Shown: positions 33,112 to 37,893 of the stretch, piece after piece
Layout: the number at the start of each line of letters is the position of its first letter
Numbering within the stretch: position 1 is the first letter of the stretch
Source of the DNA: an uncultured Acidobacteriota bacterium
GTDB lineage: Bacteria > Acidobacteriota > Thermoanaerobaculia > Multivoradales > UBA5704
Direction: 5' to 3'
Length of the DNA: 64,000 nucleotides
NCBI GenBank assembly: GCA_963698025.1
Contig: OY969112.1
Span: 5,445,200-5,509,199, forward strand
Program-made: the position numbers and the translations under genes
Notes under the pieces: generated by a model
Told to the model about the DNA's origin: nothing
The model's database searches: none
What the model saw: the letters and a program-made list of their open reading frames with translations, nothing else

Positions 33112-34896
33112 ATGAGTGAATCCACAGGTATTGCCACAGATATAGCCCCGGCCCCGGCCCAGGGGATCGCCATCGTCGGCATGTCCGGCCGGTTTCCCGG
33201 CGCCGGATCGCTCGAGGAGTTCTGGCGCAATCTTCGCGACGGCGTCGAGTCCATCTCCCGCTTCACCGAGAGCGAGCTGATCGAGGCCGGGATCGATCCC
33301 GCCCTGGTGCGCGATCCCGCCTACGTGCCGGCCAAGGGGGTGGCCGAAGGGGTCGAGATGTTCGAGCCCGCCTTCTTCGGTTTCACGCCGCGCGAGGCCG
33401 AGCTGATGGACCCGCAGCACCGGCTGTTGCTCGAGTGCGCCTGGGAGGCCCTGGAGGACGCCGGCTGCGATCCCGACCGATTCCCGGGGCGCGCGGCGGT
33501 CTACGTCGGCTCCGGCACCAGCTCGTACCTGCTGTCGAACCTGCTGCCAAACGCCGAGGAGCTGCGGAAGGCGGGCTCGCTCCAGGTGCTGATCCTCAAC
33601 GATCGCGACTTCGCCGCCACCCGGCTCTCCTACAAGCTGAACCTGCGGGGCCCGAGCGCCGTGGTGCAGACCGCCTGCTCGACCGCGCTGATGGCCGTCC
33701 ACATGGCCTGCCAGAGCCTGCTCGCGGGCGAGGCCGACCTGGCGGTCGCTGGCGGCGTGTCGGTCGGCGCGCCGGTCAAGGAGGGGTATCTCTACCAGGA
33801 GGGGAGCATCTCCTCGCCAGACGGCTTCTGTCGCTCCTATGATGCCCGGGCCGGCGGCTCGGTGGCCGGGACGGGGGCGGGCATCGTGGTGCTCAAGCGC
33901 TTGGCCGACGCCCTGGAGGAGGGGGACACCGTCCACGCCGTCATCCTCGGCTCGGCGGCCAACAACGACGGCTCGGCCAAGGTGGGGTTCACCGCTCCCA
34001 GCATCGAGGGGCAGGCCGAGGCGATCGCGGAAGCCCTGCTGATGTCCGGCGTCGAGCCGGACACGATCGGCTACGTCGAGGGGCACGGCAGCGCCACCGC
34101 CTTGGGCGATCCCATCGAGGTCTCGGCCTTGCGCCAGGCCTTCGAGCAGGCCGGGCACGGCGGCGGCCCGTGCGCCTTGGGCTCGGTGAAGAGCAACATC
34201 GGCCACCTCAACGCGGCGGCCGGCGTCGCCGGGCTGATCAAGACCGCGCTCGCGCTGCGCCACCGCACCATCCCCCCCAGCGTCCATTTCGAGCGGCCGA
34301 ATCCGCAGGTCGACTTCGGCCCCTTCCACGTGCCGACGACGGCCCTCCCCTGGGATTCGGACGGTTCGCCGCGCCGGGCCGGGGTGAGCTCGTTCGGCCT
34401 CGGCGGCACCAACGTCCACGCCGTGCTGGAGGAGGCGCCCGAGCGTGGACCCTCCGGCCCGTCGTGCCCCTGGCAGCTCCTGCCGCTCTCGGCGCGCACC
34501 CCCTCGGCGCTGGCCGCTCAGGGCTCCCGCCTGGCGGACCGGCTGGAGGCGGGCGGGCTCGACCTGGCGGACGTCGCCTTCACCCTGCAGACCGGGCGCC
34601 GGGCCTTCGCCCACCGCCGGACGGTGGTCTGCCGCGACGTGGCCGGGGCGGTCGCCGCGCTGCGCGAGGGGCGCGGCGCCGCCGGCGTCGTCGAGGGGGG
34701 CAGCGGCCCGTGGTCTTCCTCTTCCCGGGTCTCGGCGACCACTACGTGGACATGGGGCGCGAGCTCTACGACGCCGAGCCGGCCTTCGCCGCCGAGGTGG
34801 ATCGCTGCGCGGAGATCCTGCGCCCCCACCTGGGCGCCGACATCCGCGAGATCCTGTTCGCGGCCGGTCCGCGCGTTGCGGCATCCTCCTCAGTAG
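33112..34896 (+). CDS. PKS fragment 1: ketosynthase domain (sense only to ~34705, then out-of-frame tail)
   Basis: ATG at 33112 with an [12 protein letters not shown] motifs as above. Confidence 0.75.
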   Translation: MSESTGIATDIAPAPAQGIAIVGMSGRFPGAGSLEEFWRNLRDGVESISRFTESELIEAGIDPALVRDPAYVPAKGVAEGVEMFEPAFFGFTPREAELMDPQHRLLLECAWEALEDAGCDPDRFPGRAAVYVGSGTSSYLLSNLLPNAEELRKAGSLQVLILNDRDFAATRLSYKLNLRGPSAVVQTACSTALMAVHMACQSLLAGEADLAVAGGVSVGAPVKEGYLYQEGSISSPDGFCRSYDARAGGSVAGTGAGIVVLKRLADALEEGDTVHAVILGSAANNDGSAKVGFTAPSIEGQAEAIAEALLMSGVEPDTIGYVEGHGSATALGDPIEVSALRQAFEQAGHGGGPCALGSVKSNIGHLNAAAGVAGLIKTALALRHRTIPPSVHFERPNPQVDFGPFHVPTTALPWDSDGSPRRAGVSSFGLGGTNVHAVLEEAPERGPSGPSCPWQLLPLSARTPSALAAQGSRLADRLEAGGLDLADVAFTLQTGRRAFAHRRTVVCRDVAGAVAALREGRGAAGVVEGGSGPWSSSSRVSATTTWTWGASSTTPSRPSPPRWIAARRSCAPTWAPTSARSCSRPVRALRHPPQ

Positions 34897-36239
34897 GCGC
34901 CGCTGGAGCCGAGCGCCAGACCAATCTGCGCGCCCTGCTGCGCCGTGGCGAGCCCACGGACGAGGCCTCCCGCCGGCTCGCCCGCACCGAGCACGCGCAG
35001 CCCATCCTCTTCGCCGTCGAGTACGCGCTGGCGCGGCTGTTGATGGCCTGGGGCGTCCAGCCGCAGGCGATGATCGGCTACAGCCTGGGCGAGTACGTGG
35101 CCGCCTGCCTCTCCGGCGTCCTCTCCCTGGAGGACGCCCTGGCCCTGGTGGCGCGGCGCGCGAAGCTGATCCAGGAGCTCCCCGCCGGCGCCATGCTCGC
35201 CGTGCCGGCCCCTGAAACCGAGGTGCGGCCGCTGCTCGACGAGCGCCTCGCCGTCGCCGCCACCAACGGCCCGCACCTCTGCGTCGTCGGCGGCCCCGAG
35301 GAGGCGGTGGCGGAGCTCGAGAGCCGGTTGGCCGAGCGAGGGGTGACCAGCCTCCGGCTGACCACCACCCACGCCTTCCACACGCCGATGATGCAGCCGG
35401 CGGCGGCGGCGCTTACCCAACTTGCCGGTACGGCGCGGGTAGGGGCGCCGAAGATCCCCTACCTGTCGAACGTCACCGGCACCTGGATCACCGCCGCCGA
35501 CCTCCAGGACCCCGGCTACTGGGCGCGCCACATGGTCCAGGCGGTGCGCTTCGCCGAGGCGGTGGCCGAGCTGCTGCGCGATCCTGACCGCGTCATGGTC
35601 GAGGTCGGGCCGGGCGGGACCCTCTCCGCGCTGGTGCGCCAGCACCCCGAGGGGGGTGCCGGACGGCTCGCCGTGGGGACGATGCGGCGGTCGAGCGAGG
35701 CGGGATCGGATCTCGCCCTGCTGCTCGACGCCCTCGGCCGCCTCTGGGTGGAAGGCGCGCCGTTCGACCCCGCGGGGCTCTTCGCCGGCGAGCGGCGGCA
35801 TCGCGTGCAGCTGCCGACCTACCCCTTCGAGCGCCAGCGCTACTGGATCGATCCGCCGCGGGGGGGAGAAGCCCGGCCGGCCGCCGCCTCAGGGACGACG
35901 CCGGCGTCGACCGGCACCCGTCCCGACCCGGCGGACTGGTTCTGGGCGCCGGTCTGGAAGCAGGCGCCACTGGCGGCACCCGCCGCCGGGGGGACGGCGG
36001 CTGGCTGGTCTTCCTCGATCGCGGGGGTCTGGGCGGGCGGCTGGCCGAGCGGCTGCGGCGCGACGGCCAGACCGTGGCCACCGTCGCCGCCGGCGCCGCT
36101 TTTCACGCAGACGGCCACGTCGCCGGCGAGGCGTTCACCATCGATCCGGCCCGGCGGCAGGACTACGACAGCCTCGTCCAGCACCTGCGGGCCGGGGGCA
36201 GGGAGCTCCCCGCGAAGGTGCTCCACCTCTGGGGGGTGA
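34692..36239 (+). CDS. PKS fragment 2: acyltransferase domain (frame 0)
   Basis: RPVVFLFPGLGDHY ... GYSLGEYVAA ... HAFHTPMM. Sense translation ends near 35990. Confidence 0.55.
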   Translation, partial: RGGQRPVVFLFPGLGDHYVDMGRELYDAEPAFAAEVDRCAEILRPHLGADIREILFAAGPRVAASSSVGAAGAERQTNLRALLRRGEPTDEASRRLARTEHAQPILFAVEYALARLLMAWGVQPQAMIGYSLGEYVAACLSGVLSLEDALALVARRAKLIQELPAGAMLAVPAPETEVRPLLDERLAVAATNGPHLCVVGGPEEAVAELESRLAERGVTSLRLTTTHAFHTPMMQPAAAALTQLAGTARVGAPKIPYLSNVTGTWITAADLQDPGYWARHMVQAVRFAEAVAELLRDPDRVMVEVGPGGTLSALVRQHPEGGAGRLAVGTMRRSSEAGSDLALLLDALGRLWVEGAPFDPAGLFAGERRHRVQLPTYPFERQRYWIDPPRGGEARPAAASGTTPASTGTRPDPADWFWAPVWKQAPLAAPAAGGTAAGWSSSIAGVWAGGWPSGCGATARPWPPSPPAPLFTQTATSPARRSPSIRPGGRTTTASSSTCGPGAGSSPRRCSTSGG

Positions 36240-36853: not shown

Positions 36854-37893
36854 AGCGGCTGTCCGCTCTCGGAGCGGAGGAGCGGGAGCGCCTCCTGCTG
36901 GTGCGCGCCGAGTCTGGAGATCCGGCCGCGATCCGCGCGGCGCTGTCGCAGACCCGCGCCGCCTTCGGCCCGCTCCAGGGGGTGTTCCACACTGGGGGCG
37001 CTTTCACCGGCGGGCTGATCCAGCTCAAGACCGCCGAGGCCCTGCGCGCCACCGTCGATCCCGCGGCGCTGGGTGCCCAGGCCTGGCTGGCGGCCTTCGC
37101 GGCCGAGCCGGAGCCGCCTGCTTTCTTCCTCTTGATGTCCTCGACCCTGGCGTTCACCGGTGGGCTCGGGCAGCTCGACATCGCCGCCGCGGGCGCGTTC
37201 CTGGATGCCTTGGCCCGGCGCCATGCCGCCGGCGGCGGCCCGTTCACCGTGGCCGCGCATTGGGACCCCTACCAGTGGGATGGCTGGCTGCTCGCCGCCG
37301 CGGCCGGCGTCGTCGCCGGGTTGCAGCCGGCGGAGATCCACAAGAACCTGGAGGCCTGGGGCATCGCCACAGAGCGCAGCGGCGAGGCGCTGCGCCGGCT
37401 GCTCGCCGCCAGCCTGCCGCAGGTGATCGTGGCCTCGCGCGACCTGCCCGCCATGATCGCCGAGGCGGACTCGATCACCGCCGACACCCTGTTCGCCCAG
37501 ATGGCGCCGATGCACCGTGGCGAGAAGGCGCAGCGCCCCGGGCTCGCCACTGCCTACGTGGAGCCGCGCGACGAGCGCGAGCGGCACCTCGCCGCCCTCT
37601 GGGAGGAACTGTTCGGGATCGCGCCGATCGGCGCCGAGGACAGCTTCCTGGAGCTGGGCGGCCACTCCCTGCTGGCGATCCAGATGGTGACGCAGATCCG
37701 CGCCCTGTTCGAGGCCGACCTGCCGGTGACGGCGCTGTTCGAAGCGCCCACGATCGTCGAGCTGGCGAAGCTGATCGGGCGGGCGAAGGGGGAGGAGAGC
37801 CCCGAGGATCTCGAGGCCCTGTTGGCCCTGATCGAGGGGCTCTCGCCCGAGGAGGCGGCCGAGAAGCTGGCGTCCATGGAGGCCGCGCTGTGA
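36826..37893 (+). CDS. PKS fragment 4: KR catalytic subdomain remainder, carrier domain and C-terminal docking tail (frame 1)
   Basis: VFHTGGAF ... LMSSTLAFTGGLGQLDIAAAGAFLDALA ... [15 protein letters not shown] ... LASMEAAL stop. Confidence 0.55.
   Translation, partial: GGDVLGAAVKRLSALGAEERERLLLVRAESGDPAAIRAALSQTRAAFGPLQGVFHTGGAFTGGLIQLKTAEALRATVDPAALGAQAWLAAFAAEPEPPAFFLLMSSTLAFTGGLGQLDIAAAGAFLDALARRHAAGGGPFTVAAHWDPYQWDGWLLAAAAGVVAGLQPAEIHKNLEAWGIATERSGEALRRLLAASLPQVIVASRDLPAMIAEADSITADTLFAQMAPMHRGEKAQRPGLATAYVEPRDERERHLAALWEELFGIAPIGAEDSFLELGGHSLLAIQMVTQIRALFEADLPVTALFEAPTIVELAKLIGRAKGEESPEDLEALLALIEGLSPEEAAEKLASMEAAL

Follow-up and report, generated by a model that had tools for sequence, protein, structure and literature searches.

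A 64-kb stretch of DNA from an uncultured acidobacterium (contig OY969112.1; "the window" hereafter denotes this whole stretch, read on its plus strand) contains a type I polyketide synthase (PKS) gene set between two nonribosomal peptide synthetase (NRPS) genes and interrupted, as deposited, by three changes of reading frame. These three breaks, together with a fourth in the downstream NRPS gene, are most likely homopolymer under-calls that arose during sequencing or assembly, in a PKS gene that is essentially intact; in other words, the frame breaks are real as text but most probably not as biology. The region is one cis-acyltransferase type I PKS module, part of a large NRPS assembly line of lipopeptide type in an uncultured Thermoanaerobaculia-like acidobacterium. 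An earlier note on this DNA had left a choice between two options: either there are homopolymer errors and the module works, with a ketoreductase that does not reduce, or the module is decaying and is skipped. The gene and its breaks are listed below, with a slash marking the joint in the protein where the residues are given.

33112 to 37893, plus strand: gene of the PKS module, with ketosynthase (KS), acyltransferase (AT), inactive ketoreductase (KR) and peptidyl carrier protein (PCP) domains, in four pieces as deposited; 89% identity over 100% of the length to an intact homologue (P0001)
34695 to 34700, plus strand: frameshift 1, a G6 run minus one base, frame 1 to frame 0, between the KS-AT linker and the start of the AT (EGG/QRPVVFLFPGLG)
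35988 to 35993, plus strand: frameshift 2, a G6 run minus one base, frame 0 to frame 2, in the variable AT-KR linker directly before WLVFLD
36826 to 36832, plus strand: frameshift 3, a G7 run minus one base, frame 2 to frame 1, in a family-specific insert of the KR (LPAVPPG/GDVLGAAV)

In this GC-rich DNA (about 74% GC over the window), GC content at third codon positions (GC3) was plotted by frame, frames being named as codon start modulo 3. The coding frame along the PKS gene passes from 1 to 0 near 34700, from 0 to 2 near 35990 and from 2 to 1 near 36830, with GC3 at 0.9-1.0 on either side of every change. Two intact orthologues (P0001 and P0005), used as tblastn queries, return four colinear high-scoring segments in frames 1, 0, 2 and 1 that abut at the same joints, where the sole homopolymers are the two G6 runs and the G7 run listed above. 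Every frame change corresponds to the loss of one base. The GC3 plot and tblastn thereby bear out the claim, made in the earlier note, of three frameshifts in G6-G7 runs, and give each of them as -1; the positions given there for the first two runs were correct, whereas the third, placed at 36825-36831, was one base off. Because the three shifts amount to a net change of -3, the KS and the C-terminal part of the KR with the PCP come to lie in a common frame.

Addition of one G per run yields an open reading frame (ORF) of 1594 aa, and not 1593 aa as previously announced, with no in-frame stops. Its Pfam matches are, in order, the N- and C-terminal ketoacyl-synt domains, the KS-AT linker, Acyl_transf_1, Beta-ketacyl_N, KR and PP-binding; domains that are spread over four frame pieces as deposited thus form one polypeptide after three G additions. 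The repaired residues agree with the family at all joints, which read EGGQRPVVFLFPGLG, GWLVFLD and LPAVPPGxDV. At the DNA level, one orthologous locus (L002) has GAG GGG GGG CAG at site 1, that is, the G7 proposed for the repair, and another (L001) has GGGGGGC. The run at site 2 is not kept in either of these loci, relatives reading TCTGAAGGG, and site 3 reads GGGGGCCGAC in the close relatives L001, L080 and L081. Separate translation of the PKS fragments was also considered and rejected: the KS frame continues for 196 nt into nonsense, on direct reading the AT and KR pieces lack a convincing start or ribosome-binding site, and the relatives are all fused.

The PKS gene is not the only one affected. 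According to the earlier note, the shifts cluster in the PKS alone, and this is not borne out: an identical -1 shift interrupts the downstream NRPS gene.

61878 to 61884, plus strand: frameshift 4, a G7 run minus one base, frame 1 to frame 0, between motifs A5 (NNYGPTE) and A6 of an adenylation domain

The NRPS ORF concerned (47137-62040) leaves frame 1 for frame 0 near 61880, well ahead of its stop, so that the A5 motif NNYGPTE of the adenylation domain is in frame 1 and motifs A6 to A9, including YRTGD, are in frame 0. One G added at this run produces a single AMP-binding match across the joint (profile positions 2-383 of 384), and the repaired frame, with the domain order adenylation-methyltransferase-PCP (A-MT-PCP), then runs on without a stop as far as the window's end. 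No further intragenic frame change was found in the 64 kb besides the three PKS shifts and this one. Two other places that resembled frameshifts proved to be true gene boundaries: at the G7 run 12808-12814 a putative ribonucleotide reductase gene ends and an esterase gene starts at 12829, and the frame change at 39362 separates a free-standing condensation-domain protein from the next NRPS, which starts at 39359.

The association of the breaks with G runs is strong. Positions no more than 10 nt away from a G/C run of at least 6 nt make up only 3.4% of the cluster, yet every frame break falls among them; for four random sites, the chance of all being near such runs is about 1e-6. Clustering of the shifts in the PKS is mild. 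With four shifted runs, the probability of three or more lying in the PKS gene is 0.005 if all 63 cluster runs of at least 6 nt are equally at risk, and 0.04 if the 18 runs whose inferred true length is at least 7 nt are considered. The PKS is not markedly enriched in G/C runs: its 4.8 kb contain 8 of them, and the remaining 44.5 kb of the cluster contain 55. As for a strand or context bias, the four shifted runs are all G runs, drawn from 14 G and 4 C runs of inferred length of at least 7 nt, which is not significant (p about 0.33, hand calculation).

Missing bases aside, the PKS gene looks fully selected, as judged from its substitution pattern. The ratio of nonsynonymous to synonymous substitution rates (dN/dS; Nei-Gojobori method, window versus L001, per PKS fragment) is 0.18, 0.33, 0.26 and 0.26 over the four fragments; it is 0.27-0.37 for the intact pair L001/L002. 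In the ungapped PKS codon columns, the window is sister to a clade formed by L001, L006 and L007, with which it shares about 91.7% of its nucleotides. Its own branch, polarised with outgroups, has accumulated 52 synonymous and 21 nonsynonymous codon changes, 33 and 16 of which, respectively, lie downstream of the first shift. The repaired protein shows 2 private deviations at columns invariant in 18 other sequences, which is among the lowest of the 19 (range elsewhere 1-20). Signs of pseudogene decay in the PKS, namely raised dN/dS, in-frame stops or lost invariant residues, were not found after repair.

More than 80 intact homologues, 1440-1650 aa long and with the same Pfam set, are colinear with the repaired PKS, and among the matches listed this colinearity covers 99-100% of the length with the intact short homologues. 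After the best homologue, P0001 (100% coverage), several others follow at 78-80% identity; where sources are named, they are metagenome-assembled genomes (MAGs) of Thermoanaerobaculia or Acidobacteriota. Motifs were counted in the listed homologues of less than 1700 aa, of which there are 82. The nucleophile elbow of the AT reads GYS[LIV]G in 82/82, the carrier motif [LV]GGHSL is likewise present in 82/82, and most have a Tyr-less KR motif, GQ[LV][DE]xAAAG. The motifs GYSLG, Tyr-less IAAAG and PCP-like LGGHSL had already been pointed out at their correct places, together with the remark that the AT and KR active sites look degenerate. That remark is misleading, as the motifs are conserved family-wide under purifying selection: judging from these alignments, GYSxG, the Tyr-less KR and LGGHSL are conserved family traits and no lesions. 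The low dN/dS and the colinearity of the repaired ORF with intact homologues favour the first of the two options. The module probably functions, with a KR that is conserved but does not reduce.

Homopolymer under-calls are typical of long-read (nanopore, low-coverage HiFi) or flow-based (454, Ion Torrent) platforms on GC-rich DNA. All four breaks of the window are one-base deletions in G6-G7 runs, with no other lesion in about 49 kb, and if they are under-calls the true run lengths would be G7, G7, G8 and G8. Related loci differ in the same respect according to the apparent origin of their contigs. Full-length orthologues on contigs with short-read-type names (k141_, k127_, k255_, scaffold) are all single-frame. 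At the locus L022 (MFD02581.bin.2.147, contig_4634, taken as long-read from its name), the PKS is in three frames, and NRPS1, PKS and NRPS2 are each in 2-5 frame pieces; GC3 frame transitions number about 21 in 25 kb there versus 3-4 in L001, L003, L006 and L007, each of the latter at a true stop. Two PKS-internal breaks of L022 are not at long homopolymers. L022:1-25117 corresponds to CAVXIG010000035.1 and represents an orthologous cluster with about 88% DNA identity to the window across the shared 18 kb. The L002 locus (contig named np1212) shows an intragenic frame change and two in-frame TAG stops. The latter lie in NRPS genes, at 5690-5700 (YVTP*VAAL) and 16268-16274 (ARVL*APPV), the second lying where the window has CAG, and they look like systematic substitution errors of the L002 assembly. 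Frameshifts and fragmented gene calls caused by homopolymer indels are described as the error that persists in nanopore assemblies and in MAGs of low coverage (PMC9262707).

Several points weigh against under-calling as the cause. Three of the four shifted runs are in the 4.8-kb PKS, and a uniform error model does not predict such clustering. A further 14 G/C runs of at least 7 nt in the cluster carry no frame break; the earlier note had stressed that intact ORFs elsewhere in the cluster contain unshifted G7-G8 runs, but the G7 at 61878-61884 is shifted. The dN/dS and conservation tests are blind to very recent real slippage mutations, and at runs of G7-8 slippage outpaces base substitution by orders of magnitude. 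No copy from the same population was found. Exact-protein look-ups with the KS fragment, the methylmalonyl-CoA mutase and the esterase had no match, and genome and metagenome scans returned relatives alone, at 88-91% (blastn or best tblastn segment): the genome scan gave best tblastn segments of 88-91% identity, the metagenome scan for site 1 with variable run length had no matches, and that for site 3 gave only relatives at about 88-90% (blastn) reading GGGGGCCGAC.

The breaks could alternatively be real and very recent, slippage having inactivated the PKS and one NRPS gene, in which case a young pseudogenised cluster or a non-producing subpopulation would have been captured. This is unlikely. 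The breaks do stand in the deposited sequence, three of them within one gene and all four in one functional unit, and none occurs in the 14.6 kb of housekeeping genes alongside; after a first inactivating hit, later hits would be neutral, and slippage is in general fast enough to leave dN/dS unmarked. Against it, about 49 kb show no nonsense codon, larger deletion or indel outside long G runs, the four events are all deletions, and purifying selection is seen along the entire branch of the window. Similar breakage in related loci is moreover confined to those taken as long-read and occurs in no short-read ones. The concentration of shifts in the PKS does not help in deciding, because random error and neutral slippage both depend on the same runs and leave it equally unexplained; with the same long-run count, neutral decay does not make it any more expected.

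It is very improbable that the G runs are contingency tracts allowing reversible on/off switching of the PKS, or that programmed ribosomal or transcriptional slippage restores the frame. The shifts do lie in G runs, and the three -1 shifts sum to -3, by which the original frame is regained; but if this net -3 alone counted, the AT and the N-terminal half of the KR would be translated as nonsense. As for contingency tracts, L001, L080 and L081 lack the runs or have them interrupted, a G7 being found at site 1 alone and in L002 alone, the PKS shows no marked enrichment of G/C runs, three short mid-gene runs would have to be switched together for function, and more than 80 homologues are plain single ORFs. 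Hardly credible, finally, is an old, decaying relic bypassed by the assembly line, with GYSLG and IAAAG as part of the decay: these motifs depart from the textbook GHSxG and YAAAN, yet they are invariant or near-invariant in more than 80 intact homologues, every fragment has a dN/dS between 0.18 and 0.33, the key residues are retained in the KS (Cys-His-His), the AT (Ser, Arg and HAFH) and the carrier (Ser), and the repaired protein deviates privately at only 2 invariant sites. The skipped, decaying module of the earlier note accordingly finds no support beyond the shifts themselves, given a dN/dS as low as in intact pairs, the 52:21 ratio on its branch and these 2 deviations.

With under-calling as the preferred explanation, the repaired gene can be described domain by domain, from the following features:

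33163 to 34293, plus strand: KS domain, frame 1 (Pfam PF00109 and PF02801), with Cys189 (codon 33676-33678), His325 and His365 present
34713 to 35702, plus strand: AT domain, frame 0 (Pfam PF00698), with GYSLG at 35076-35090 (Ser658 nucleophile), and the malonyl-type motif HAFH at 35370-35381
36062 to 36484, plus strand: structural N-terminal subdomain of the KR, frame 2 (Pfam PF21394)
36668 to 37266, plus strand: catalytic-type subdomain of the KR, frame 2 then 1 (Pfam PF08659, weak E-value of 3.6e-18), with IAAAG at 37180-37194
37588 to 37776, plus strand: carrier domain (Pfam PF00550), with the PCP-type motif LGGHSL at 37654-37671 (Ser codon 37666-37668)

In an alignment with 18 intact orthologues, the KS triad formed by C189 (TACST), H325 (EGHGS) and H365 (NIGH) is invariant, as are the AT residues G656, Y657, S658, G660, E661, Arg683 and H754/H757, and the carrier motif LGGHS1520L. 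The KS also has, at its N-terminus (33121-33160), a six-residue insertion that none of these orthologues contains and whose codons are unusually AT-rich for this genome (TGIATDIA). Aligned to solved PKS acyltransferases, the AT places GYSLGE opposite GHSLGE and HAFH opposite HAFH. It contains a Ser in a GxSxG elbow, R683 and H754-A-F-H757, and the residue preceding the Ser is Tyr instead of His; the AT retains, by alignment, its Ser-His dyad. The GYSLGEYVA sequence is also found in the acyltransferases of bimodular PKSs of about 2600 aa (P0017, P0019, P0022, P0023 and P0041; from Thermoanaerobaculia or Acidobacteriota where named), whose KRs have a canonical Rossmann motif. Because these proteins pair GYSLGEYVA with such a motif, the Tyr-for-His elbow would be a lineage variant independent of KR inactivation. 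A literature search on GYSLG acyltransferases and on Thermoanaerobaculia NRPS/PKS clusters returned nothing relevant.

When the KR is compared with that of MlnE (5d2e), IAAAG stands opposite YAFAN, with Ile in the position of the Tyr and Gly in that of the Asn. The NADPH-binding motif GGxGxxG is not present either, as TDGVHGGG stands opposite TGGAGGLG of MlnE, and the consensus of the family is TDGxHGGG. No catalytic Tyr was found at the motif position in the aligned orthologues or in the homologues matched by regular expression. From the missing Tyr, Asn and NADPH motif, we infer that the KR-like domain is a conserved redox-inactive ketoreductase (KR0), which may be structural or otherwise functional. 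Its Rossmann half additionally contains an insert of about 25 aa (PPxFPxxExWxxWxGLPxVPPGQDV; 36760-36860, repaired residues about 1217-1250), inside which frameshift 3 lies; this insert is found in most family members, P0038 and P0050 being without it.

Two neighbouring genes bear on the place of the module in the assembly line:

14654 to 33091, plus strand: upstream NRPS of 6145 aa, with about six AMP-binding, six condensation and seven carrier matches, and a FAAL/DIP2-like loading match
37890 to 39362, plus strand: free-standing condensation-domain (C) protein of 490 aa (Pfam PF00668), with the motif HHIATDW

The upstream NRPS opens, at 14654-16400, with the DIP2-like/FAAL-type adenylation match and has one carrier more than condensation domains. 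This arrangement suggests a fatty-acyl loading module and hence a lipopeptide product. Downstream, the start of the C protein overlaps the PKS stop (GTGA). The order NRPS, PKS, free C protein (about 490 aa) and NRPS also exists at the loci of P0001 and P0003 and is conserved in L001 and L002, and in P0039, P0090 and P0109 the PKS and this C protein form a single fused polypeptide. Since the following NRPS itself opens with a C domain, two C domains occur in a row; the putative role of the free C protein could be condensation, an epimerisation-like function or another one. On the other side of the cluster, the flank 1-13485 encodes an amino-acid permease, a PAS-GGDEF-EAL protein, a FIST protein, a methylmalonyl-CoA mutase, an HhH protein and an esterase, as well as an ORF of about 960 aa for a putative ribonucleotide reductase. 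These housekeeping and regulatory genes are unbroken despite 14 G/C runs of at least 6 nt.

Taken together, these features allow a tentative course of events to be proposed. Cys189 of the KS would receive the peptidyl chain that the upstream NRPS holds on its last carrier, and the AT, through HAFH and Ser658 of GYSLG, would load malonyl onto the PCP-like carrier. Decarboxylative condensation would then give a beta-keto acyl thioester. Because the Tyr, the Asn and an intact NADPH motif are missing, the KR-like domain is presumably unable to reduce it, and the KR0 would leave the beta-keto acyl chain unreduced on the PCP-like carrier. The free-standing C domain and then the next NRPS would carry the chain onward. 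To our knowledge, no product is known for any member of this PKS family.

As far as sequence analysis goes, the module is best read as an intact KS-AT-KR0-PCP protein that would add a malonyl unit and leave a beta-keto group. The result is mainly a caution, in that annotation pipelines that take the breaks at face value would call the cluster broken or mispredict its product. Our current understanding of PKS and NRPS enzymology is unchanged, and the fixation of GYSxG acyltransferases and a Tyr-less KR in a large, uncharacterised hybrid-module family of uncultured Thermoanaerobaculia is of modest interest for natural-product mining. Should the losses be real after all, which we doubt, a soil acidobacterial population would just have switched off a lipopeptide-polyketide pathway of about 50 kb through slippage at ordinary G runs, three of which belong to the one PKS gene, with no substitution-level decay yet. 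The window would then offer a snapshot of the earliest loss of a biosynthetic gene cluster, or of a non-producing "cheater" subpopulation.

Comparison with known systems places the breaks closest to documented homopolymer indel errors (PMC9262707). In both cases single-base length changes are limited to homopolymer runs in genes that are otherwise conserved, and the breaks recur in the apparent long-read loci L022 and L002 and in no short-read ones. The window differs in that 4/18 long runs are affected, three of them in one gene, and the breaks of L022 do not lie at long homopolymers. The phase-variable poly-G loci of Neisseria, Haemophilus and Campylobacter also change frame through one-base changes in G-run length. 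In contrast to those, the tracts here are short (6-7), located mid-gene, three per gene, not conserved and not enriched.

Redox-inactive KR0 domains are a known component of modular PKSs, for example in DEBS module 3. As there, both KR subdomains (PF21394 and PF08659) are retained in the module without the Tyr or a canonical NADPH motif. Unlike there, the Asn is replaced as well (xAAAG) and the Rossmann half carries the family insert of about 25 aa. Because its extender is malonyl, this module would offer no obvious substrate for the alpha-epimerase activity that has been proposed for some KR0 domains. In its overall layout, the module resembles those of hybrid NRPS-PKS lipopeptide systems, where a single KS-AT-KR-carrier unit is inserted between NRPS genes and a PCP-type carrier faces a C domain. 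It departs from them by the GYSxG that, in place of GHSxG, marks the AT throughout its family, and by its separate 490-aa C partner, followed by an NRPS that itself opens with a C domain.

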